41,509 nt of DNA, taken from a virus. Taxonomy: Duplodnaviria > Heunggongvirae > Uroviricota > Caudoviricetes. The notes below the pieces were generated by a model. That model saw nothing but the letters and a program-made list of their open reading frames with translations. It searched no databases and had not been told where the DNA came from. Positions 26,748-36,575 of this stretch are shown piece after piece. A program made the translations under genes and the position numbers. Location of the stretch: positions 1-41,509 of IMG/VR virus record IMGVR_UViG_3300028364_000020; one strand, written 5' to 3'. How positions within the stretch are numbered: position 1 is the stretch's first letter; the number at the start of each line of letters is the position of its first letter.

Positions 26748-27221
26748 ATGGAAAATAACAAAGAAGCGTTTAAAAAATTCGACAATGATAGGTTTGAATT
26801 TATCCTTTATGTAAACAATAATATTGTTTGTCAACGAGGTTTTCATATTTTTGATTTTGATGAAAACATGACAAACATGAAAGAAATGTTAGATGAAGTT
26901 TCAGGTATGCATTTAAACGATTTAGGTAGATTAGGTATAATCCCTACATTTTTAAAAAAACAATCGAATGATTATATGTGGTCCAATTACAACCCGTACA
27001 TTGACCAATCGCAAGAAACTTATAAATCACCACCAAAAAAAATGGATGAGTTTAAGTTTCAATTTCTTTTAGATAAAGAAGTTCGTGGGGAATCAATCTT
27101 TCCAAATGAGTTTTTTCACTTATCATTAAAAGTGAATGTAAACATAAAAGAGATAATCCCAGAAATAATTTATGAAATTAGAGAATGTTTTAGTAATAGA
27201 AAATTTACTAATAAAAGATAA
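26748..27221 (+). CDS. Hypothetical protein
   Basis: 157 aa ORF between the exonuclease and helicase genes. Confidence 0.6.
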   Translation: MENNKEAFKKFDNDRFEFILYVNNNIVCQRGFHIFDFDENMTNMKEMLDEVSGMHLNDLGRLGIIPTFLKKQSNDYMWSNYNPYIDQSQETYKSPPKKMDEFKFQFLLDKEVRGESIFPNEFFHLSLKVNVNIKEIIPEIIYEIRECFSNRKFTNKR

Positions 27222-27262
27222 ATTTATATCAAAGTTTGAATTAATAATTAAAAAAATGATAA

Positions 27263-29584
27263 ATGGCGGTGTTAGATAGAGATAGTTTTGGTTATTTAGG
27301 TTACGATTATCAAATTAGACTAATTGCACAATTTATAACGGATAGAAAATTTAGTGAATCTATTTTAGATATCGTTGACCCAAATTATTTTGCTGACTCG
27401 TATTTGAAAATAATTGTTGCTACAATTAAAGATGCACATAGAATTGATAACATAGTACCAGATATTGGTAGTCTACAATTTAGATTATTAGAAGAAGTTA
27501 AAGACGATATACAACAAAAATACGTCATTGCACAACTTAGAAAAATACAAGAAGCCGATTTAAATGATACATTAAAAGTCCAAGACATGGCTATGAGGTT
27601 TTGTAAACAGCAAGACATGTTGAAGACTTTAGTGAATGTTGAAAAACTAAATAAAAGTGGTGGATTGGATAATTTCGACCAAATCGAAGCTATGTTAAGA
27701 AAATCACTCGAAGTTGGTGATAACAAAGACCAAGGAATGAGTGTCTATGACAACATAAGTAGTGTTTTAGATGTTGATTTTAGGAAACCAATACCAACTG
27801 GTATTTCTGGGTTAGACGAAATAATGGATGGTGGTCTATCCAAAGGTGAATTAGGTGTTATATTAGCACCATTTGGTGTTGGTAAAGCACAAGGTGTTTC
27901 GAGTAAAATTTATACTCCAAGTGGTTATTGTTTAATGGGTGATATTAAAGTTGGTGATAGGGTAATTAATAGGTTAGGTAGACAAACAAATGTTACTGGG
28001 GTTTACCCACAAGGTATCAGACCAATTTACCAAGTAAAGTTTAATGATGGAACATCAACAATGTGTGATAAAGAACACTTATGGTCAGTTAATCAACAAA
28101 CTAAATTGGACCCAAACGATGATTTTACTGTTATGAAAACCAGTGATATTATTGAAAAGTTAAATTCTGACCCTAAAGGTGAGTTTAACTATAAGATTCC
28201 AACAGTTAAACCAGTTATTTTTGACGAAAAAGAATTACCGTTAAACCCATACCTTTTGGGGTTATTAATAGGTGATGAATACTTCAAGTCTTCTATAATA
28301 GTAACTAAAGATTTTGAACTGATAGAATACATTAAACAAAGTATGAGTGGTGATTCAACATACGGTGTTGAAATGTATAAAGATGATGTTATCGTAACCA
28401 TAAATCAAATCACCGATGTAATAAAAAAACTTGGGTTATTTGATTCGTCATCTAATAATAAATTTATACCTAAAGAATATCTATATAACTCAATTAACAA
28501 TAGACAAGAGATTCTACAAGGGTTATTAGATAACGATGGTAGTGTTGGAAAAGATGGTAGTGTTGGATATAATACCGTTTCTAAACAGCTATGTGATGAC
28601 GTTAAAGAATTAGTTCTATCTTTGGGTGGTTCTTGTTTAGTTTCTAATAAAGTAGGGGAATTAACTTATAGATTAGTTATTTCATTTCCTAAAGAAAATG
28701 GTGTAGTTCCATTTAAATTAAACAGTAAGTTAGTCAGAGTGGTTAATAACGATAACCACTCTGACAATAAGTTCATAGAAAGTATTGAATATTCACATGA
28801 TGAAGAAGCTAAATGTATTATGGTTGATGACCCAGAGCATTTATATGTTACAGACGATTTTATCGTCACACATAATACAACAATGATGACAAAAATAGCG
28901 AATACTGGAGCTAATGATGGTTATAATGTTTTACAAATATTTTTCGAAGATAACCCAAAAGTTATTCAAAGAAAACACTTATCTTGTTGGACAGGCATCC
29001 CTCTAAATGATTTGTCGTCACATCATGATGAAGTTATGACGATTGTCGCTGAAAAACAAAAGCTAGGTGATTTAAGATTAGTAAAATTTTCAAGCGATGG
29101 GACAACAATACCTATGATTAGACAATATATCCGAAAATTAATCGCACAAGGGTTTAGACCAGACTTAATCTTATTAGACTACATAGATTGCGTTGAACCA
29201 TCAAGAAAATTTGATGATATAAACGCTGGTGAAGGAAGTGTAATGAGACAATTTGAGACGTTGTTATCTGAACTAGATATGGCTGGTTGGACAGCGGTTC
29301 AAGGAAATCGTTGCGTGCGAATAGATACTGAGGTTCAAATAATTAGGTTGGGTAAAACAGAAATAAAGAATGTTATTGAGGGTGATGAAATATTAACAAA
29401 TGATGGGTATAAAAAAATTACTACTGTTTTTCCAATAGAAAAACAACCAGTTTATAAAATTAAATTAAAGTCTGGTAAGGAAATATTTGTTTCTAGTAAA
29501 CATGAATTCCCAGTTAAATGTGGTAAATTAAGGTCAATATCTACTGGGTTAAGTGTTGGTGATAAATTATTAACTAAAAAATAG
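27263..29584 (+). CDS. dnaB: Replicative helicase (DnaB/T4 gp41-like), N-terminal fragment; contains a contiguous intein and ends in a split-intein N half
   Basis: IPTGISGLDEIMDGGL, Walker A APFGVGK|T, LILLDYID, WTAVQGNR followed by CVRIDT... intein start. Confidence 0.9.
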   Translation: MAVLDRDSFGYLGYDYQIRLIAQFITDRKFSESILDIVDPNYFADSYLKIIVATIKDAHRIDNIVPDIGSLQFRLLEEVKDDIQQKYVIAQLRKIQEADLNDTLKVQDMAMRFCKQQDMLKTLVNVEKLNKSGGLDNFDQIEAMLRKSLEVGDNKDQGMSVYDNISSVLDVDFRKPIPTGISGLDEIMDGGLSKGELGVILAPFGVGKAQGVSSKIYTPSGYCLMGDIKVGDRVINRLGRQTNVTGVYPQGIRPIYQVKFNDGTSTMCDKEHLWSVNQQTKLDPNDDFTVMKTSDIIEKLNSDPKGEFNYKIPTVKPVIFDEKELPLNPYLLGLLIGDEYFKSSIIVTKDFELIEYIKQSMSGDSTYGVEMYKDDVIVTINQITDVIKKLGLFDSSSNNKFIPKEYLYNSINNRQEILQGLLDNDGSVGKDGSVGYNTVSKQLCDDVKELVLSLGGSCLVSNKVGELTYRLVISFPKENGVVPFKLNSKLVRVVNNDNHSDNKFIESIEYSHDEEAKCIMVDDPEHLYVTDDFIVTHNTTMMTKIANTGANDGYNVLQIFFEDNPKVIQRKHLSCWTGIPLNDLSSHHDEVMTIVAEKQKLGDLRLVKFSSDGTTIPMIRQYIRKLIAQGFRPDLILLDYIDCVEPSRKFDDINAGEGSVMRQFETLLSELDMAGWTAVQGNRCVRIDTEVQIIRLGKTEIKNVIEGDEILTNDGYKKITTVFPIEKQPVYKIKLKSGKEIFVSSKHEFPVKCGKLRSISTGLSVGDKLLTKK
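27887..28876 (+). mobile_element. Contiguous class 3 intein (330 aa) with LAGLIDADG endonuclease, inserted in the helicase P-loop
   Basis: Ala1 (AQGV), block B EHLW, block F KCIMV, block G THN|T; LLGLLIGDE and LQGLLDNDGS endonuclease motifs. Confidence 0.9.
29312..29581 (+). mobile_element. Split intein N half (90 aa), helicase
   Basis: Cys1 CVRIDTEV, block B VSSKHEF, ends LSVGDKLLTKK then TAG. Confidence 0.9.
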
Positions 29585-29647
29585 TGTAAATATTTCTATT
29601 TCTGTTACTATTTAATTAGTAAGGATTATGGAGTTAAAAAAAAATAA

Positions 29648-29788
29648 ATGATAGAACACAATTTAAACTTAGACGATTTTGAGTTAGATGAAATTGAATC
29701 AATAGAATTAATCGGAGAAGAGGACACCATTGATATAACAGTAGAGGAAACACATATGTTTTACGCTAATGATATCTATACACACAAT
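29648..29788 (+). mobile_element. Split intein C half (47 aa), helicase
   Basis: EDTIDITVEETHMFYANDIYTHN|S, blocks F and G with Ser+1. Confidence 0.9.
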
Positions 29789-30148
29789 AGTTCTCTTTCA
29801 GCAGAAGTGGTGGAAGCAAACCAAATGGGTGGTTCTATTAAAAAAGGTCAGATTGGTCACTTTATCGTGTCAATCGCTAAAACTTTAGACCAAAAAGATG
29901 ATGGTACAGCAACTATGGCAATACTTAAATCTCGTTTTGGTAAAGATGGTGTTATATTTCAGGATATTAAATTTGATAATTCAAGGATTCAAATCGATAT
30001 GGGTGAAAGTAAAGGTGCTAGGACAAAAAAAGAGCATACTGAAGATAAAAGTGTAAAACAGCAATTAAGAGTTAATACATTATTTGCAGCGGCTAAGGCA
30101 CAAAAAACAAAGACCGAAGTAATGGAGGGGTTAATAGTCCCAGTATAA
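29648..30148 (+). CDS. dnaB: Helicase C-terminal fragment starting with a split-intein C half
   Basis: 47-aa IntC ending THN, then SSLSAEVVEANQMGGSIKKGQIGHFIVSI...AILKSRFG, the helicase C-terminus. Confidence 0.9.
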   Translation: MIEHNLNLDDFELDEIESIELIGEEDTIDITVEETHMFYANDIYTHNSSLSAEVVEANQMGGSIKKGQIGHFIVSIAKTLDQKDDGTATMAILKSRFGKDGVIFQDIKFDNSRIQIDMGESKGARTKKEHTEDKSVKQQLRVNTLFAAAKAQKTKTEVMEGLIVPV

Positions 30149-30177
30149 ATAAATAAAAACAAACAAACAAACAAAAA

Positions 30178-31155
30178 ATGAGTAATATTAGTGGAGTAGA
30201 AGAAATAGAACCAATCTTAGTTAAAAATTCGGACCGTTTTGTTATTTTCCCAATTGAACATGAAGATATTTGGAAATATTATGAAATATCTTTAGAATCA
30301 ATGTGGACGGTAAAAGAAGTTGATTTATCTAAAGATATTGACGATTGGAATAATAAATTAACTGAAAATGAAAGGTTTTTCATTAAAAACGTATTAGCTT
30401 TTTTTGCTGCCTCAGATGGTATCGTAAATGAAAACTTGGCAGAAAATTTTTTAAAAGAAGTTCAGTATACTGAAGCATCATTCTTTTATGGTTTTCAAAT
30501 TATGATGGAAAATATACACAGTAATATGTATTCACTATTGATTGATACGTACATCAAAGACACCAAAGAGCGAAATGAATGCTTTAAGGCGATAGAATAT
30601 ATGGAACCAGTCAAGAAGAAGGCTGATTGGGCTTTAAAATGGATTGAATCCGAATCATTTGCTGAAAGATTGGTGGCTTTTGCTGCTGTTGAAGGAATAT
30701 TTTTCAGTGGTTCTTTTTGTAGTATATTTTATTTGAAATCAAGAGGTTTGATGCCTGGATTATGTGATAGCAACGCATTCATTTCAAGAGATGAAGCACT
30801 ACATTGTGATTTTGCTATTCACTTATTGAATAATCACATCGTAAACAAACCATCTAACGAAAGAATTAAAGAAATTTTCTTGTCAGCATTAGAAATTGAA
30901 AAAGAGTTTATTACCGAATCTTTACCAGTTTCTCTTATTGGTATGAATTCTGAATTAATGAAAAGATATTTAGAATTTGTTGTTGATGGTTTATTGGTTC
31001 AACTTGAATGCGACAAAGTTTTTAACACTAAAAACCCATTTGAATTTATGAACCAAATTGCTTTAAAAACAAAACAAAACTTTTTTGAAGGTCGTTCAAC
31101 AGAGTACAAATCAGCTGATTTAAGTGGACCTATTTCATTTGATGAAGAAATTTAA
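30178..31155 (+). CDS. nrdB: Ribonucleotide reductase class Ia small subunit
   Basis: [40 protein letters not shown] di-iron/tyrosyl motifs. Confidence 0.95.
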
Positions 31156-31166
31156 TAAAAAAAAAT

Positions 31167-32753
31167 ATGCAAGTAATTAAAAGAAACGGGAATAAGATTG
31201 ATTTTAACCCGAATAAAATTCTAACAAGAATTAAAAAACAATCAGAAGGATTAAAAGTAAATGCGGATGATGTATTTATTAAAGTAACACAAGGTATTGC
31301 GGATTTAATGACAACTAATCAATTAGATGACTTAATTTCTGTTGTGGCCGAATCTTTAGCAATGAATCATCCAGATTACTCAATATTAGCCGCTAATATT
31401 TCAATAACTAAACTTCATAAGGAAACTGAGGAATCGTTTATGAAAGCGACTAAAAAGATGTATAACGCTGGTCTATTAAGTGAGGTTTACTTCAATAAAG
31501 TAAAAGATAATATCGAATTAATTGAGTCAGCAATTGATTATAAAAGAGATTTTCATTTTGATTATTTTGGGTGGTGTTCTTTAAAAGATATTTATCTTCT
31601 AAAATTGAAAAACGGTTCAATCGTTGAACGACCACAACACTTATATGTTAGGGTTGCTTTAATGATAACGGGAACACCAGAAGACTTTTTAGAGAAGTAT
31701 GATGATTTAAGCTTTCAAAAAGAAAGTCCAGCAACACCTTTAAAAATTAACATTGGTACCACAATTGGACAAATTGCATCATGTAACTTATCAATAATTC
31801 CAGAGGATTCAACTGATGGTTTATTAAATATTTTATCTAGAATTGCAATTTCATCGTCAAAGGCAGAGGGTATCGGATTAGCTGTTTCTAACATGCGTTC
31901 TAAAGAAAGTAACGTTGGTAAATCTAACGGAAAAGCTGGTGGTATTTTGAAATATTTAAAAATTGTTAATGAAACACTTAGGTTTTGGAATCAACGTGGT
32001 AAACGACCAGGTTCCTGTGCAATCTACATCGAACCATGGCATAAAGATGTATTTGATGTTTTAGATATTAGAAAAAAAACAGGTGATGAAACAATGAGGG
32101 CCAGAGATTTATTTTCGGCCTTATGGAATACAGATAATTTCATGAGAGCAGTTGAATCTGGAGGAGATTGGTATCTATTTTGCCCAGATGACATAAAAGA
32201 AGCTGGTCTAAAACCATTTTATGAAATATATGGTGTTGAATTTGAAGAAGAATACGACAAAGCTGTGGCTTTAGGTATTGGAACCAAGATAAAAGCTTAT
32301 GATTTATGGTTAAAAATATTAGAAGCCCAAATTGAGACTGGTATGCCTTACATGTGTCACAAAGACCATGCTAATAAAAAATCGAACCAAAAAAACGTTG
32401 GTATGATTCATTCAAGTAATTTGTGTGTTGATGGTGAAACAATTATTAAAACAAAATATCATGGTAAGGAAGTTGATTTTAATATTTCCGATGTTGTTAA
32501 CGATTTTAATGTAGAACACGGTATAGAAGTATTAAGTTATAATATTGAAACAAATAAACCAGAATATAAAAAGATAACAAATGCTGCCTTAATGAATGAG
32601 TCAGCTGATGTTTTAAAGATAACTGATGAGGAAACTGGTAAACATATTATTTGCACACCAGAACACCAAATATTCACAAAAAATAGAGGATATGTGTTAG
32701 CTAAAGATTTAGTTGAGACTGATGTATTAGAAATATTAAATACAAAAACGTAA
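31167..32753 (+). CDS. nrdA: Ribonucleotide reductase large subunit, fragment 1 (ATP cone to SSNL) plus split intein N half
   Basis: VIKRNG ATP cone, ASCNL, RGKRPGSCAIYIEPWH, HSSNL|CVDGET. Confidence 0.92.
   Translation: MQVIKRNGNKIDFNPNKILTRIKKQSEGLKVNADDVFIKVTQGIADLMTTNQLDDLISVVAESLAMNHPDYSILAANISITKLHKETEESFMKATKKMYNAGLLSEVYFNKVKDNIELIESAIDYKRDFHFDYFGWCSLKDIYLLKLKNGSIVERPQHLYVRVALMITGTPEDFLEKYDDLSFQKESPATPLKINIGTTIGQIASCNLSIIPEDSTDGLLNILSRIAISSSKAEGIGLAVSNMRSKESNVGKSNGKAGGILKYLKIVNETLRFWNQRGKRPGSCAIYIEPWHKDVFDVLDIRKKTGDETMRARDLFSALWNTDNFMRAVESGGDWYLFCPDDIKEAGLKPFYEIYGVEFEEEYDKAVALGIGTKIKAYDLWLKILEAQIETGMPYMCHKDHANKKSNQKNVGMIHSSNLCVDGETIIKTKYHGKEVDFNISDVVNDFNVEHGIEVLSYNIETNKPEYKKITNAALMNESADVLKITDEETGKHIICTPEHQIFTKNRGYVLAKDLVETDVLEILNTKT
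32424..32750 (+). mobile_element. Split intein N half 1 (109 aa), NrdA
   Basis: Cys1 CVDGETII, block B CTPEHQIF, YVLAKDL, then TAA. Confidence 0.9.
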
Positions 32754-32754
32754 A

Positions 32755-32853
32755 ATGATAAAAATAGAAAAATTAAAAGAAAATAAAAAGGTGTATGACA
32801 TTACAGTTGAAGGTAATAGTAATTTCTTTGGGAACGGTATCTTAGTACATAAT
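32755..32853 (+). mobile_element. Split intein C half 1 (33 aa), NrdA
   Basis: MIKIEKLKENKKVYDITVEGNSNFFGNGILVHN|C. Confidence 0.9.
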
Positions 32854-33738
32854 TGTGCAGAAATTATGGAATCGACTGATTATCAGACAACTGCGATTTG
32901 TACGCTTACAAGTATCCCAGTACATAAATTTATTAAAGATGGTAAATATGACTTTATTGAGTTAGGAAGGGTTGCTCGTTCAATAACTAAATCACTTAAT
33001 ATCGCAATTGAGGTCAATGAATATTCTACAAAAGAAGGTAGAAAAGGTGGTTTAGAGCAAAGAGCATTAGGAATTGGTATTCAAGGATTAGCCGACACAT
33101 ATGCGATATTAAAACTTCCTTTTACTTCAGAAAGTGCAAGGAAATTAAATAAAAACATTTTTGAAACCATTTATTATAATGCACTTAAGGAATCTTGTAA
33201 TTTAGCTAAATCAAGTGGTTTAAAATATCATGGGTATGAAGGTTCACCTATTTCTGAGGGTGTTTTCCAATGGGAAATGTGGGGAATAAATGAAGAAGAT
33301 TTATCTGGTCTTCATGATTGGAAACAATTAAGAGAAGACATAATTAAATATGGTGTTAGAAATTCTTTAGTAACAACAGCACCACCAACTGCTAGTTGTC
33401 AAGTTATTGGAACTAGAATACAAACCGAAAACGGTGTTAAATCCTTTAAAGATATATTGGAAGAAAATAATATCGATTGGTCAGCTTTAGAGGACAACAA
33501 TTTACAACAATGGTTACCATTAAAACCTTTTAATGTAAAAACCACTAATGGTTACGAAGAAGTTGATAAAATTAAATACAATGCGTATTCAGAAGTGTAC
33601 AAAATAGAAATGGAAGATGGTTCTATTTTTGAGGCAACACCAAACCATAAGTTTAAGGTAAATAGAGATGGTCAAGAAACTTGGGTTGAAGTTAAAGACC
33701 TCTTATTAGATGACGATATTTTAAATATTTTCGAATAA
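32755..33738 (+). CDS. nrdA: Ribonucleotide reductase large subunit, fragment 2 (IntC1 - catalytic core - IntN2)
   Basis: 33-aa IntC ending VHN|CAEI, AICTLTS, LGIGIQGLAD, RNSLVTTAPPTAS|CQVIGT... intein start. Confidence 0.92.
   Translation: MIKIEKLKENKKVYDITVEGNSNFFGNGILVHNCAEIMESTDYQTTAICTLTSIPVHKFIKDGKYDFIELGRVARSITKSLNIAIEVNEYSTKEGRKGGLEQRALGIGIQGLADTYAILKLPFTSESARKLNKNIFETIYYNALKESCNLAKSSGLKYHGYEGSPISEGVFQWEMWGINEEDLSGLHDWKQLREDIIKYGVRNSLVTTAPPTASCQVIGTRIQTENGVKSFKDILEENNIDWSALEDNNLQQWLPLKPFNVKTTNGYEEVDKIKYNAYSEVYKIEMEDGSIFEATPNHKFKVNRDGQETWVEVKDLLLDDDILNIFE
33397..33735 (+). mobile_element. Split intein N half 2 (113 aa), NrdA
   Basis: Cys1 CQVIGTRI, block B EATPNHKF, WVEVKDL, then TAA. 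Confidence 0.9.
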
Positions 33739-33791
33739 CCCTCGATGTTTTGTTATCAAATAAAAAATATTAATAAATTAAGAAAAAAAAA

Positions 33792-33896
33792 ATGAAAATA
33801 AAAAAAATATCTAAAGGAGAAGTAAAACCAACATGGGATATTGAAGTACCTAATGTAAATCATTATATAATGGAAAACGGTTGTGTTAGTCATAAC
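33792..33896 (+). mobile_element. Split intein C half 2 (35 aa), NrdA
   Basis: MKIKKISKGEVKPTWDIEVPNVNHYIMENGCVSHN|S. Confidence 0.9.
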
Positions 33897-34409
33897 TCAG
33901 CTAGAGTAATTGGGGCAAACGAAGCATTTGAACCATTTACGTCAAATCTTTATGTTAGAAAAGTAACTGGTGGTGAATTTGCGATGGTAAATAAACATCT
34001 AGTAAGGGACTTAGAAGCTGAAGGATTATGGAATAGAGATATTTTACAAGAATTAATTAAAAGTGAAGGAAGTGTTCAAAATATTTCAGCAATTAGTCAA
34101 GATTTAAAAGACATTTACAAAACAGTTTGGGAGTTGTCACAAAAATCTTTAATAGAAATGTCAGCTGAAAGAGGTCCATTTATTGACCAATCACAGAGTT
34201 TAAATTTATTCTTCGCTACTCCAACGGTAGGTAAATTAACAACAGCACATTTTCTAGCTTGGAGATTAGGGTTAAAAACTGGACAATACTATTTAAGAAG
34301 TCAACCAGTTGAAATGAAAGCTAAACACTTAGCTATTGACATGAGTAAAGTAAAACAACCAGAAAAACCGACAGAAAGTCAATTTGAGTGTGAAGGTTGT
34401 TCTACGTAA
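33792..34409 (+). CDS. nrdA: Ribonucleotide reductase large subunit, fragment 3 (IntC2 plus C-terminus)
   Basis: 35-aa IntC ending SHN|SARVIGANEAFEP, FIDQSQSLN, GLKTGQYYLR, terminal CEGCST. Confidence 0.92.
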   Translation: MKIKKISKGEVKPTWDIEVPNVNHYIMENGCVSHNSARVIGANEAFEPFTSNLYVRKVTGGEFAMVNKHLVRDLEAEGLWNRDILQELIKSEGSVQNISAISQDLKDIYKTVWELSQKSLIEMSAERGPFIDQSQSLNLFFATPTVGKLTTAHFLAWRLGLKTGQYYLRSQPVEMKAKHLAIDMSKVKQPEKPTESQFECEGCST

Positions 34410-34424
34410 AATAAAACAAAAAGT

Positions 34425-34452
34425 AAAAGGGAACCAATTGGCTCCCTTTTTT
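34425..34452 (+). terminator. Rho-independent terminator after nrdA
   Basis: AAAAGGGAACC-AATT-GGCTCCCTTTTTT, one mismatch. Confidence 0.75.
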
Positions 34453-34511
34453 AATTCCTATATTTACTTATAAAAATTAAATGTTATTATATTTATAAAT
34501 TAAAGAATAAT

Positions 34512-34892
34512 ATGGCAAGATTTATAAATATAAACTACCCGTTTAAAGATAGCGATAAAGGACATTTTTTGGCTTTGAATGATAATGATACCCAAGCAGT
34601 AAAAGCTGACCTACTACATCTAATTCTTACTAGAAGAGGTCAAAGACTTTATAAACCAGATTTTGGTACAGATTTAATGAAGTTTATATTCGAACCAAAT
34701 GACGAATTAACAATGAGCGGAATTAAAGAAGAAATCCACAACGTAATAAAAGCATATTTCCCCCAATTGACAATTGATGAACTTTCAATTGTTGAATCAG
34801 AAGAAAGTGACCATGCGGCAACACTAACAATAAGATATTCAATAACAGACGATGTATTTACAACATCAGATATGATTGTTGTAAACATATAA
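34512..34892 (+). CDS. Baseplate wedge / sheath initiator (T4 gp25-like)
   Basis: DLLHLILTRRGQRLYKPDFGTDLMKFIFEP...AYFPQLTI, the gp25/GPW signature. Confidence 0.9.
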   Translation: MARFININYPFKDSDKGHFLALNDNDTQAVKADLLHLILTRRGQRLYKPDFGTDLMKFIFEPNDELTMSGIKEEIHNVIKAYFPQLTIDELSIVESEESDHAATLTIRYSITDDVFTTSDMIVVNI

Positions 34893-36540
34893 ACAAAATA
34901 GTAAAAAATTTTAAAATATATTTTTTATTACCAGAGTCATAAATTCGATAAATACCTCTTTCTAACATTATGTCATGTTCTGACTTGGTTTTATCATAAC
35001 CATCTTTAACTAACAAATCTTTTCGGTAATTAAACCTATATTTCCTTTCTTTATTTATAATATAAAAATAGCTAGGTTTCGAGTCATGAATAAATTCAAA
35101 ACCTAATTTTTCATATAAATTACCAACACTCCATCGTTTATCGGCATAACTAATAACTTCTTTTGGGTTATAATTTTTTATAAAATATTTAAATAATTTA
35201 TCGGCCCCACCAATTACACTCGTATCTAACTCATTGACAAATCTAAGTAATTCATATGAGTTTTCTTTTTTATTTTGACCTAAAATCTTTCTTAAATTAC
35301 CAAAAGTCATTAAAGAAACTAACTTGTTTTCATAATATAACCCTAACCTAATACTTGAATTACTATATCCTTGTAAATGATTATTAATTAAAAATTCTCT
35401 GACTTGTTTTGTTGATACCTCTTTTATTTCACATTTTCTACCATAAACTCTTTTTTGTGTTAAACCAAGAATATTTTTAAGTCTAGATTTAACAATATCT
35501 TGTTTATTTAACCATTCATCCTCAAATATGTGTATTAATTGAATATCTTGTTCTGAACATAATTGTGTTTTATTGAGGTGGTAATTTTTATCTTTATATA
35601 TTTCGGAATGCCAATATAACCCATTATATTCAATAGCTATTTTATGGTCTGGTAAATAAATATCTAATTCAAATGATTTTATTATTTTTCTAGTATTCTC
35701 TATAATTTTAACGTCAAGTGATTTTATAAAAGTCTTTATTTCAATTTCATGAGACGATGTACCATTATTTGAACATTTAATACAACCATTTCCTTGTCTA
35801 TGTGAATCAACCCTTTGATTAAATTCACCATGAATAGGACAAATTATTTCGACTTCACCCTGAGAGTTATTGTAGATTACTTTTGAGTAATCATATTTAT
35901 TATTATGAACTATACTACATATAGTTTTAAAAGTGTCGGTATTGTATATTTTACCTAAACATTCAAAACAACCTTGCTCTTTGGATAGATGGTTATTTGG
36001 TGTTTGTTCGAATTCACCATGAATAGCACAAATTATAGTGACTTTAGTTCTAGAATTAGTATAAACAACTTTTGAATAATCGTATTTATTGTTATGTATT
36101 TTTTGAGCTTTAGATATAAATAACTTTCCATCCATTTTAATTGTACCACCACAGTACATACATCCTCTACCAGATAAATGATTATCTGGCGTTTGTTCGA
36201 ATTCACCATGGATAGGACAAATTATTATAACCTTAGTTTTAGTGTTCTTATATATAACCTTTGAGTAATCATATTTATCACTATGTACCTCATTAGCCTT
36301 TTGAATAAAGAATTCGATTGTGTTCTTCTGTTTATCACTAGTTTTACTTGAACCACATTTTGGACAACCTTGTTTATTACAAATGTGTTTATTAGGTTTC
36401 TGTTCAAATTCACCATGCTCACTACATATTATCTTAAGTTTAGTGTTATTATCTATATAAACTGAATTAGTATAATCATATTTACTGTTATGTATTTTAT
36501 TTGATTCTAAAATAAAATCTTCTATTGTCTTTTTTTTCAT
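34858..36540 (-). CDS. Zn-finger-repeat / Vsr-like putative homing endonuclease with C-terminal GNAT-like domain
   Basis: Four IIC-x2-HGEF-x-Q...H...GC-x2-C repeats, LDIYLPDHKIAIEYNGLYWHSE, IHIFEDEW, then YELLRF...GGADKLF...VISYAD.RWS.G.LYEKLGF. ATG 36540 is preferred because the track start at 36570 lies inside the promoter element. Confidence 0.75.
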   Translation of the reverse strand: MKKKTIEDFILESNKIHNSKYDYTNSVYIDNNTKLKIICSEHGEFEQKPNKHICNKQGCPKCGSSKTSDKQKNTIEFFIQKANEVHSDKYDYSKVIYKNTKTKVIIICPIHGEFEQTPDNHLSGRGCMYCGGTIKMDGKLFISKAQKIHNNKYDYSKVVYTNSRTKVTIICAIHGEFEQTPNNHLSKEQGCFECLGKIYNTDTFKTICSIVHNNKYDYSKVIYNNSQGEVEIICPIHGEFNQRVDSHRQGNGCIKCSNNGTSSHEIEIKTFIKSLDVKIIENTRKIIKSFELDIYLPDHKIAIEYNGLYWHSEIYKDKNYHLNKTQLCSEQDIQLIHIFEDEWLNKQDIVKSRLKNILGLTQKRVYGRKCEIKEVSTKQVREFLINNHLQGYSNSSIRLGLYYENKLVSLMTFGNLRKILGQNKKENSYELLRFVNELDTSVIGGADKLFKYFIKNYNPKEVISYADKRWSVGNLYEKLGFEFIHDSKPSYFYIINKERKYRFNYRKDLLVKDGYDKTKSEHDIMLERGIYRIYDSGNKKYILKFFTILFICLQQSYLML

Positions 36541-36567
36541 ACTTATTGTTTCTTTATTATAACTACG

Positions 36568-36575
36568 CAAATGTA
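36568..36575 (-). promoter_or_regulatory. Bacteroidota-type -7 element for the antisense nuclease gene
   Basis: Minus strand TACATTTG; the same 10-mer (GCAAATGTAC on plus) occurs at 923-932. No clear -33 TTG at the canonical spacing. Confidence 0.55.

Follow-up and report, generated by a model that had tools for sequence, protein, structure and literature searches.

Organization of the Locus

A 7-kb block (27263-34409) carries genes for a helicase and for both RNR subunits, together with three split inteins and one contiguous intein, all encoded on the same strand. The window, that is, the whole stretch of 41,509 nucleotides that was analyzed, comes from a large uncultured lake-water phage. 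The helicase portion of the block and the uninterrupted nrdB gene that follows it are laid out as below.

27263-29584, plus strand: helicase N-piece ORF, 773 aa (ORF listing and translation), composed of extein 1-208, contiguous intein 209-538, extein 539-683, and IntN 684-773
27887-28876, plus strand: contiguous intein, 330 aa, with a LAGLIDADG endonuclease domain (LAGLIDADG_3 and Hom_end matches)
29312-29581, plus strand: helicase IntN, 90 aa; Cys1, block B S-S-K-H, net charge +7
29585-29647, plus strand: helicase spacer, 63 nt, without an endonuclease ORF
29648-29788, plus strand: helicase IntC, 47 aa; own ATG, T-H-N end, +1 Ser, net charge -15
29789-30148, plus strand: helicase C-extein, 119 aa, colinear with intein-free helicases
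30178-31155, plus strand: nrdB, RNR small subunit, between helicase and nrdA (Pfam Ribonuc_red_sm, E 1e-104)

The helicase N-piece gives Pfam matches to DnaB_C, LAGLIDADG_3, and Intein_splicing. Its contiguous intein is inserted in the P-loop, between GVGK and T, and is a candidate class 3 intein because it begins with Ala, carries a Trp two residues past the block B His (H-x-W) and a block F Cys, and ends in T-H-N. Among solved inteins it is closest to that of the DnaB helicase (6bs8; E 8e-12), with which the H-x-W and Cys positions align. The helicase IntN, directly closed by a TAG stop at 29582-29584, matches the gp41-1 intein (6qaz; E 4e-14) and scores 16.4 bits with TIGR01445, under the profile cut-off; the IntC reaches 28.3 bits with TIGR01443 (cut-off 15.6) and matches the gp41-1 C-part (E 6e-6). 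The spacer between these halves contains a 7-codon mini-ORF (29628-29651), the stop of which overlaps the ATG of IntC, and is weakly similar to the leader preceding the endonuclease gene of a relative, L087, in a local alignment matched by 41 of 2000 shuffles. A search of this spacer for a hairpin found none that was significant (z -1.1).

The nrdA gene is broken twice, so that its product is encoded in three pieces.

31167-32753, plus strand: NrdA piece 1, with IntN1 at its end
31167-32423, plus strand: NrdA extein 1, 419 aa; ATP-cone, all-alpha domain, and first barrel part, ending S-S-N-L
32424-32750, plus strand: NrdA IntN1, 109 aa; Cys1, block B T-P-E-H, net charge -8
32751-32757, plus strand: first NrdA junction, TAA-A-ATG, a 1-nt gap from piece 1 stop to piece 2 start
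32755-33738, plus strand: NrdA piece 2, with IntC1 at its head and IntN2 at its tail
32755-32853, plus strand: NrdA IntC1, 33 aa; own ATG, V-H-N end, +1 Cys
32854-33396, plus strand: NrdA extein 2, 181 aa, ending P-P-T-A-S
33397-33735, plus strand: NrdA IntN2, 113 aa; Cys1, block B T-P-N-H, net charge -11, then a stop
33739-33791, plus strand: second NrdA spacer, 53 nt, A-rich, without an ORF
33792-34409, plus strand: NrdA piece 3, with IntC2 at its head
33792-33896, plus strand: NrdA IntC2, 35 aa; own ATG, S-H-N end, +1 Ser
33897-34409, plus strand: NrdA extein 3, 170 aa, with the C-terminal Cys pair
34425-34450, no strand assigned: GC-rich palindrome, terminator-like on the minus strand only (terminator scan)

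IntN1 matches the NrdJ-1 intein (8ubs; E 1e-12) and exceeds the TIGR01445 cut-off (25.8 bits), IntC1 scores 43.5 bits with TIGR01443, and the Cys that follows IntC1 is the thiyl-radical Cys of the N-x-C-x-E motif. For the second NrdA intein, IntN2 and IntC2 score 35.8 bits (TIGR01445) and 22.8 bits (TIGR01443), respectively; a comparison with solved inteins returned no close relative, and no significant hairpin was detected in the 53-nt spacer (z -0.8). Structure prediction of IntN2 with IntC2 as a complex scored 0.84, against 0.00 for the best control, with at least 96% of contacts agreeing between runs and a partner pLDDT of at least 81. Of 80 solved complexes, 58 attain the mark applied, as do 2 of 110 mismatched pairs; similarity to split inteins of known structure may account for the pass of this pair.

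ORF listing and translation reproduce the anatomy given in a preliminary description of the window: the three IntN halves (90, 109, and 113 aa) all run to a stop, the three IntC halves (47, 33, and 35 aa) all begin at an ATG of their own, and the gaps, to the base, are 63, 1, and 53 nt. Likewise, removal of all inteins, the contiguous one included, leaves a helicase of 208 + 145 + 119 = 472 aa and an NrdA of 419 + 181 + 170 = 770 aa, both colinear with intein-free homologues that are 75-88% identical. The three helicase extein parts join codon for codon in comparison with such homologues, e.g. L010, and the NrdA exteins abut in the same way in comparison with L016-L021; TIGR02506 is tiled by the three NrdA pieces (positions 1-295, 294-482, and 479-616).

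A terminator scan of 27263-34409 gave no credible site within the block, its one plus-strand hit (27854-27870) falling inside the helicase coding sequence, and the palindrome at 34425-34450 is the sole terminator-like site downstream. No Rfam intron was found in the block. The whole would represent a phage operon for replication and nucleotide supply, probably co-transcribed, in which the genes for two essential enzymes are split and protein trans-splicing restores the products. None of the sequencing runs listed as containing the stretch is an RNA run.

Conservation of the Breaks and of the Inteins

The stops are borne out by independent assemblies. A contig of 13 kb that was assembled in an unrelated study (X3) is continuous over 29675-34000 and includes both NrdA splits, the first of them without an HEG. 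The same three breaks occur in a locus from another sample (L006), and run X4 shares the breaks of L006. The same ends are kept in 32 stand-alone NrdA middle pieces that are 45-79% identical, and across all of these the V-H-N of IntC1 and the Cys1 and block B His of IntN2 are invariant; the S-H-N of IntC2 is invariant in 5 homologues. The 63-nt helicase spacer is found only in runs that are possibly the source sample, and the helicase junction of other samples is another allele, in which stop and start overlap. Helicase pieces made of IntC and C-extein, of similar length, form 448 clusters.

All three split inteins keep Cys1, [T/S]xxH, the terminal HN, and a +1 nucleophile (Ser, Cys, and Ser, respectively), and five of the six halves score over the TIGR01445 or TIGR01443 cut-off. 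These features support the assignment of three naturally split inteins with intact catalytic residues. Estimates of dN/dS, which are rough because dS is near saturation, are 0.04-0.26 for the intein halves and 0.06-0.17 for the exteins, the exception being IntN1 compared with L008 (0.66), a relative with a different intein at a neighboring site.

Polymorphism of the Endonuclease Genes

At the sites concerned, related alleles occur intein-free (the L010 helicase, NrdA of L016-L021), split, and with an endonuclease gene. Phages that are ~98-99% identical (L006, run X4) have a 1.2-kb GIY-YIG homing-endonuclease gene at the first NrdA split; L087, a relative of ~79% nucleotide identity, has an insert in each of the three gaps; and L010 and L014 carry an endonuclease gene of ~1.1 kb in the second NrdA gap. 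A strong hairpin lies ahead of the endonuclease gene in the fractured layout of L006, L010, L087, and L089. The endonuclease-free layout is one state of a polymorphism. The preliminary description, which had presented absence of the endonuclease as setting the locus apart from known fractured genes, is thus right for the three gaps of this allele but not for the contrast, as L006, X4, and L087 carry inserts. Most likely, the endonuclease-free state comes late in the cycle that homing endonucleases pass through at split inteins; close relatives retain endonuclease genes in the same gaps.

The intein halves also appear to move. IntN1 is 99.4% identical in nucleotide sequence to that of L087 and its flanks only 78-80%, which points to a recent transfer between lineages. 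As IntN1 moved without IntC1, pairing would be family-wide rather than strictly pair-specific, leaving some room for cross-talk.

Proposed Assembly of the Fragments and Selectivity of Pairing

The pieces of the helicase and of NrdA are very probably stitched together post-translationally by the three split inteins. The helicase N-piece would first lose its LAGLIDADG-bearing P-loop intein in cis, after which its basic 90-aa IntN and the very acidic 47-aa IntC at the head of the next ORF would come together as a pair of gp41-1 type and yield a 472-aa DnaB/gp41-like helicase. In NrdA, IntN1 and IntC1, a pair of NrdJ-1 type, would link pieces 1 and 2 just before the thiyl-radical Cys. This residue is predicted to serve as the +1 nucleophile of IntC1, so that NrdA could have no activity until it is spliced. 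A third and more distant intein type, IntN2 with IntC2, would link pieces 2 and 3 inside a P-T-A-S/S motif, and the spliced product would be a 770-aa class Ia large subunit.

For correct assembly, each IntN must find its own IntC. Mutual orthogonality of the three pairs, as argued in the preliminary description, is a sound inference and logically required, because the NrdA middle piece bears both IntC1 and IntN2 and a cross-reaction would circularize or skip it. Selectivity likely arises from low identity between the inteins (28-34% for IntN, 29-45% for IntC) and from the opposite polarity of the helicase pair: the net charges of IntN and IntC are +7/-15 in the helicase, -8/+1 in the first NrdA intein, and -11/+1 in the second. 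Synthesis of neighboring halves from one mRNA probably also aids pairing. Orthogonality is consistent with this charge polarity and with the published behavior of the family members gp41-1 and NrdJ-1, which have been combined as orthogonal inteins and are among the 15 of 16 members of a tested panel found mutually orthogonal (PMC7090010). The gp41-1 IntC is negatively charged (bioRxiv 10.1101/546465), and published charge-swap work shows that charge alone does not fix orthogonality.

An unlikely but serious alternative holds that the inteins splice without being truly orthogonal, fidelity coming mainly from kinetics and adjacent synthesis on one mRNA, with some chimeric, skipped, or circular by-products tolerated. 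Electrostatics cannot tell the two NrdA inteins apart, as they share charge polarity and their IntC N-termini are alike and basic; cognate halves lie next to each other, 1-63 nt apart, in a block with no credible terminator; and IntN1 seems to work with IntC1 variants 79% identical, as though recognition were not razor-sharp. Against this stand the 28-45% identity between inteins, the near-complete orthogonality of the published panel, and the persistence of the IntC1-extein-IntN2 piece in lineages down to 45% identity, which is hard to square with frequent self-circularization. Improbable to a further degree is a loss of splicing in some halves, which would act only as non-covalent docking domains. 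Docking by itself would explain the predicted IntN2-IntC2 complex, and phage Aeh1 offers a documented case in which the fragments of a phage NrdA assemble non-covalently, without an intein (PMC3045599). However, Cys1, the block B His, the terminal His-Asn, and the +1 nucleophile are kept in all three inteins, the splicing positions are invariant or nearly so over 32 homologues, which docking alone does not need, and unspliced NrdA would have ~140 intein residues interrupting its active-site loop at the first site. Finally, although the window is a metagenomic assembly whose exact 63-nt spacer occurs only in runs possibly its source, the idea that the stops arose as artefacts of assembly or sequencing, or belong to decaying pseudogenes of a phage that uses the host helicase and RNR, is close to refuted by the recurrence of the breaks in independent samples and studies, the conserved ends in ~50 middle-piece and 448 helicase C-piece clusters, purifying selection on the halves, and the position of every break at the canonical intein split point, where random stops would not fall three times.

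The account that best fits these observations, and that is held here with good if incomplete confidence, is that helicase and NrdA are made in pieces and trans-spliced, that pairing is likely selective, and that the endonuclease-free layout is a late stage of the cycle.

Comparison with Known Systems

The combination found in the window is not unique and is common in phage metagenomes: NrdA middle pieces of the three-piece type form ~50 protein clusters, a 565-kb phage encodes NrdA in four pieces, and all three split sites occur together in L006, L087 (~79% nucleotide identity), and L089 (53% amino acid identity). The closest precedent is the set of fractured genes from ocean metagenomes (gp41-1 to gp41-9, NrdA-1 to NrdA-7, NrdJ-1 and -2; Dassa et al. 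2009, PMC2677866). There too, a split intein whose halves share one strand interrupts helicase and RNR genes of phage type, the break in NrdA immediately precedes the thiyl-radical Cys, and the intein halves measure 88-105 aa (IntN) and 33-54 aa (IntC). The full fractured layout is that of the relatives L006, L010, L087, and L089, whereas the window lacks an endonuclease gene in all three gaps. Only the gp41-7 locus was reported without an endonuclease, and endonuclease loss is step III of the model of those authors (PMC2677866). They describe one split per locus, save for an extra embedded intein part in DnaE-1 (PMC2677866); the window, in contrast, has two split inteins in nrdA, giving three pieces, and packs three split inteins and a contiguous one into 7 kb.

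Among individual inteins, gp41-1 (6qaz/6riz; Beyer et al., bioRxiv 10.1101/546465) resembles the helicase intein in its host, a phage gp41/DnaB-type helicase, in the S-x-x-H block B and terminal H-N followed by Ser, and in its basic IntN and acidic IntC. The IntC of the window differs in its 47-aa length and longer acidic N-terminus, and no endonuclease gene separates the halves. IntN1 shares with NrdJ-1 (8ubs) and the NrdA-2 intein a T-P-x-H block and the same RNR active-site region, but its host is a class Ia NrdA rather than a class II NrdJ, and it precedes the catalytic Cys (L/C), whereas NrdJ-1 lies one residue later (PMC2677866); relatives such as L008 have an intein at this later, NrdJ-1-like site.

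Aeromonas phage Aeh1 (Crona et al. 2010, PMC3045599) also has a fragmented nrdA, nrdA-a / mobE / nrdA-b, from which the enzyme is reassembled. There, a mobile endonuclease gene breaks the gene and the fragments associate non-covalently without an intein, whereas the complete split-intein halves of the window predict covalent ligation. In the literature, a multi-piece layout with split inteins was found only as a laboratory design. Engineered orthogonal trans-splicing (Pinto et al. 2020, PMC7090010) and three-segment ligation (PMC12707363) likewise use several split inteins in one cell or pot, a middle fragment with an IntC head and a different IntN tail, and orthogonality against circular or skipped products. 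Those schemes are laboratory constructs; the arrangement in the window is natural, conserved, and under selection.

Architecture of the Helicase-nrdB-nrdA Block

The helicase and nrdA genes of the window are broken by split inteins, one in the helicase gene and two in nrdA (sites 1 and 2), and an intact nrdB lies between the two broken genes.

Open reading frames and spacers of the helicase-nrdB-nrdA block
27263-29584: helicase N-piece, with a 90-aa IntN at its C terminus (29312-29581), then TAG
63 nt: helicase spacer, between that TAG and the next ORF
29648-30148: helicase C-piece, beginning with a 47-aa IntC that ends T-H-N, then Ser
30178-31155: nrdB, intact, between helicase and nrdA
31167-32753: nrdA piece 1, with a 109-aa IntN (IntN1) at its C terminus
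TAA-A-ATG: junction of pieces 1 and 2, with a 1-nt gap
32755-33738: nrdA piece 2 (the middle piece), with a 33-aa IntC first (IntC1; V-H-N, then Cys) and a 113-aa IntN last (IntN2)
53 nt: spacer between pieces 2 and 3
33792-34409: nrdA piece 3, beginning with a 35-aa IntC (IntC2; S-H-N, then Ser)

The preliminary description of three IntN and three IntC halves, their gaps, and the sums of their exteins was reproduced exactly by ORF listing and translation, as was its statement that the gaps of 63, 1, and 53 nt contain no endonuclease ORF. The halves of each intein lie on separate ORFs, with a stop after each IntN and a start of its own at each IntC, and the summed exteins amount to 770 aa for NrdA and 472 aa for the helicase, the latter only when a further intein, contiguous and 330 aa long (27887-28876), is taken out as well. 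No significant hairpins were found in the window spacers, and a search of Rfam over 27000-34700 returned neither an intron nor any other RNA family. The block also contains no credible terminator, as the sole plus-strand match falls inside the helicase coding sequence and is discounted for that reason. Among the sequencing runs listed as containing the stretch, none is of RNA.

Toward the end of the helicase spacer (29618-29651) are an A-A-G-G-A motif and a mini-ORF of 7 codons (29628-29651), the TGA of which overlaps the ATG of the IntC; the mini-ORF may serve to couple translation. Beyond nrdA, a 570-aa minus-strand ORF (34858-36570) encodes several treble-clef zinc-finger repeats (DUF4379) and a Mom-like region, and its 3' end overlaps that of a gp25-like baseplate gene. 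This ORF may be another mobile nuclease-like gene beside the intein-rich block.

Intein Identity and Predicted Splicing

All three pairs fit the description of naturally split class 1 inteins of the HINT fold and are predicted from their sequences to splice. Cys1 directly follows the N-extein in each IntN (29312, 32424, and 33397), and each has a block B (T/S)-x-x-H motif, namely S-S-K-H in the helicase intein (aligned to S-E-E-H of gp41-1), T-P-E-H at NrdA site 1, and T-P-N-H at site 2. A C-terminal His-Asn and a +1 nucleophile are present in all three (T-H-N then Ser, V-H-N then Cys, and S-H-N then Ser, respectively). The splicing regions are recognized by Pfam and NCBIfam; against TIGR01443 the IntC halves score 28.3 (helicase), 43.5 (NrdA-1), and 22.8 bits (NrdA-2), all above the cut-off of 15.6, and against TIGR01445 the NrdA IntN halves score 25.8 and 35.8 bits, above the cut-off of 24.5. 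The helicase IntN falls below the latter cut-off at 16.4 bits, yet both helicase halves match the solved gp41-1 intein (E 4e-14 for IntN and 6e-6 for IntC). IntN1 in turn matches the solved NrdJ-1 intein (E 1e-12). On these matches, the helicase intein is assigned as a new member of the gp41-1 family and the first NrdA intein as a new member of the NrdJ-1 family. For IntN2, the search of solved structures gave no close relative, only repeat-protein noise and weak matches to DnaE inteins (E about 0.1).

The helicase intein is inserted between Q-G-N-R and S-S. NrdA site 1 lies at the catalytic Cys of the ribonucleotide reductase (RNR), with the intein between S-S-N-L and C-A-E-I, and is the same as the NrdA site of Dassa et al. 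2009 (PMC2677866). In a locus related to the window (L008) and in three related proteins (P0005, P0023, and P0034), the first NrdA intein is found one residue later, after N-L-C and before Ser or Cys (at L008:6688-7099, N-L-C, intein, S-E-I), the position reported for NrdJ-1. One intein family therefore uses two neighboring insertion points around the catalytic Cys.

Structure prediction for IntN2 with IntC2 gave a score of 0.84, against 0.00 for the best control; 58 of 80 solved complexes attain the mark for docking, as do 2 of 110 mismatched pairs. The contacts of the three runs agree to at least 96%, partner pLDDT is at least 81, and the end of the IntC adjoins block B and Cys1, so that the two halves are predicted to dock into one HINT domain. 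This pass may reflect likeness to, or memory of, known complexes, because split-intein complexes have already been solved. Association of the helicase pair and of the NrdA-1 pair is proposed by homology to the solved gp41-1 and NrdJ-1 inteins. The natural contiguous relative of the second NrdA intein (P0064:214-375), folded as a single sequence, reached a pLDDT of 37, too low for the model to be used.

In class 3 inteins, a block F Cys replaces the first-residue nucleophile. The contiguous helicase intein (27887-28876) looks like a member of this class, as judged from an Ala as first residue, a Trp two residues past the block B His, and a block F Cys. It ends in T-H-N, followed by Thr, carries a LAGLIDADG domain, is inserted in the P-loop (between G-V-G-K and T), and has the DnaB helicase intein 6bs8 as its best solved relative (E 8e-12). 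A fifth intein, with a PF14890 match and no stops, is encoded in the same phage record outside the window (G000:C1:65767-66111).

The Breaks in Relatives and Independent Assemblies

The breaks noted in the preliminary description recur in DNA from other sources. The three NrdA pieces tile the NrdE/NrdA model TIGR02506 (1-295, 294-482, and 479-616), and in tblastn searches the NrdA extein parts abut codon for codon, without gaps, in the related loci L016-L021; those of the helicase abut gap-free in intein-free relatives that include L010 and L017. In an unrelated 2024 study, a contig of 13 kb (run X3) is continuous across 29675-34000, and both the 1-nt junction and the second NrdA split are therefore present in that independent assembly. 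All three breaks are found in L006, a locus from another sample, although there the helicase has another spacer allele, and the genes of the related locus L087 are also split into separate ORFs.

The exact 63-nt helicase spacer was found only in runs that are possibly the source sample. In other samples, the position of the helicase split is unchanged, but stop and start overlap and the IntN allele is diverged, sharing 66% amino acid identity with that of the window inside 99% identical flanks. Compared with L006, which has a 4-nt overlap in place of the 63-nt spacer, the diverged part of the helicase IntN is its first third (window 29312-29425 versus L006:2431-2545), with a dS of 1.2 and an amino acid identity over the whole IntN of 66%. 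These alignments mark mosaic recombination inside an intein half.

Endonuclease Polymorphism and Movement of Intein Halves

The endonuclease-free state of the window is one allele of a polymorphism. A free-standing endonuclease gene between intein halves, the feature that defines a fractured gene in the sense of Dassa et al. 2009 (PMC2677866), is absent from the window and present in L006, L010, and L087. In L006 and in a 75-kb contig from another metagenome run (X4), whose exteins are roughly 98-99% identical to those of the window, an insert of about 1.2 kb separates IntN1 from IntC1, giving exactly the fractured-gene layout of Dassa et al. 2009 (PMC2677866) at NrdA site 1. The gene in L006 (L006:5802-7000, corresponding to window 32738-32754) encodes a 395-aa protein with GIY-YIG and NUMOD domains, and a strong hairpin with a 15-bp stem lies just before it (z -5.2). 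As X4 has the insert and X3 lacks it, endonuclease-plus and endonuclease-minus alleles coexist in nature.

More distant relatives display further states. L087, syntenic with the window at about 79% nucleotide identity, carries an insert in each of the three gaps: the helicase gap holds a DUF559/Vsr-like gene, site 1 of NrdA a GIY-YIG gene, and site 2 an ORF of 90 aa. L089 (53% amino acid identity) has the same three splits, with inserts in two of them. In L010-L012 and L014, site 1 is empty and an endonuclease gene lies within the second NrdA split, the insert of L010 matching a PHROG homing endonuclease. Related proteins include one with a contiguous mini-intein at site 2 (P0064) and others in which site 1 or site 2 is empty (P0080 and P0017), and in L016-L021 the genes are wholly intein-free. 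An endonuclease-less locus, gp41-7, and loss of the endonuclease as step III of a model have been described by Dassa et al. (PMC2677866). Searches for relics of a lost gene gave nothing significant when the junction at site 1 was compared with the 3' end of the endonuclease ORF in L006 (118 of 2000 shuffles reach the score) or in the site-2 spacer against the L010 and L087 leaders (99 and 128 of 2000); the helicase spacer against the L087 leader gave a weak signal (41 of 2000).

The clearest trace of movement is in IntN1. Positions 32424-32738 of the window are 99.4% identical in nucleotide sequence to L087:6885-7199, as against 78-80% in the flanking nrdA and 76-89% over the neighboring extein, IntC1, and the remainder of nrdA, with a sharp boundary at the insertion site. 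Such a pattern is the sequence signature of recent gene conversion or horizontal transfer of an IntN without its IntC partner. Most plausibly, IntN1 came with the adjacent endonuclease gene, which was later lost from the window allele, a direction that we infer. Because a half that is 99.4% identical sits in a background of roughly 79%, IntN halves would be shuffled by homing endonucleases. IntC1 of the window and that of L087 share 26 of 33 residues, and because one IntN1 serves both variants, the specificity with which IntN1 pairs with IntC1 would be that of the family and not of a single co-evolved pair.

Conservation of the Split Layout

The three-piece layout of nrdA is common in public metagenomes. 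Among the 120 best matches to the middle piece there are roughly 50 full-length homologous clusters, on contigs of up to 565 kb, and in 32 aligned middle pieces (45-79% identity) the V-H-N of IntC1, Cys1 of IntN2, and the block B His of IntN2 are all invariant. For the helicase C-piece, 448 homologous clusters of comparable length were found. Rough dN/dS values, obtained with dS near saturation, are 0.04-0.26 for intein halves and 0.06-0.17 for exteins, with the exception of IntN1 against L008 (0.66), a locus that has a different intein at the neighboring site. On L086, a 565-kb phage contig, three split inteins divide nrdA into four pieces (L086:3405-7955). There, a 68-aa ORF ends after G-G-G-K and the next begins about 270 nt on at K-R-K-G-S; this gap could represent a short intron or one more break. 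Across a broad phage clade, two or three distinct split inteins are kept jointly on essential enzymes.

Proposed Orthogonality of the Three Pairs

The reasoning of the preliminary description, that correct assembly requires mutual orthogonality, is sound, and on this logic the three pairs would be orthogonal. As IntC1 and IntN2 are on the same chain, cross-reaction between them would circularize piece 2; pairing of IntN1 with IntC2 would skip that piece. The IntN halves of the three inteins are 28-34% identical to one another and the IntC halves 29-45%, and gp41-1 and NrdJ-1 have been used jointly as orthogonal inteins (PMC7090010). The net charges of IntN and IntC are +7 and -15 in the helicase intein, -8 and +1 in NrdA-1, and -11 and +1 in NrdA-2, so that the polarity is the same in both NrdA inteins and opposite in the helicase pair. 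A basic IntN with an acidic IntC is already known for gp41-1 (bioRxiv 10.1101/546465), and published charge swaps were not sufficient alone to create orthogonality. Since the two NrdA inteins share a polypeptide and a polarity, determinants other than electrostatic "capture" would be needed. Synthesis of neighboring halves from one mRNA, over gaps of 1-63 nt with no credible terminator, may aid pairing. When the whole of piece 2 was folded with a 32-row alignment, IntC1 (residues 1-33; pLDDT 31-42) was undocked from IntN2 (pLDDT 66-89); as a low score this is no evidence against binding, and it is not counted for orthogonality.

An even chance is given here to the combined reading, in which the clade carries a co-evolved set of three split inteins (four in relatives) side by side in one cell, their orthogonality is not set by electrostatic "capture," and endonucleases keep shuffling IntN halves between lineages.

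Significance and Relation to Known Systems

Split inteins are used throughout protein engineering, where sets free of cross-reaction are both rare and prized. If the combined reading is true, the clade would offer ready-made sets of orthogonal split inteins already tested by selection and would be a natural system for learning how pairing specificity survives the exchange of intein halves. Active helicase and RNR would arise only after several protein-splicing steps, which represent a possible point of control or vulnerability. The main value of the block lies in this natural source of co-working split inteins and in a population-level picture of the endonuclease cycle.

In the searchable literature, outside of which most subscription journals lie, neither a natural gene broken by at least two split inteins nor a natural working set of three was found, and multi-fragment trans-splicing there appears to be a matter of engineering only. 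The middle NrdA piece, which begins with an IntC and ends with an IntN, has the same design as laboratory three-fragment ligation, and close relatives of the window display every stage of the published gene-breaking model, among them the empty site, the contiguous mini-intein, the endonuclease-less split intein, and the freshly transferred half.
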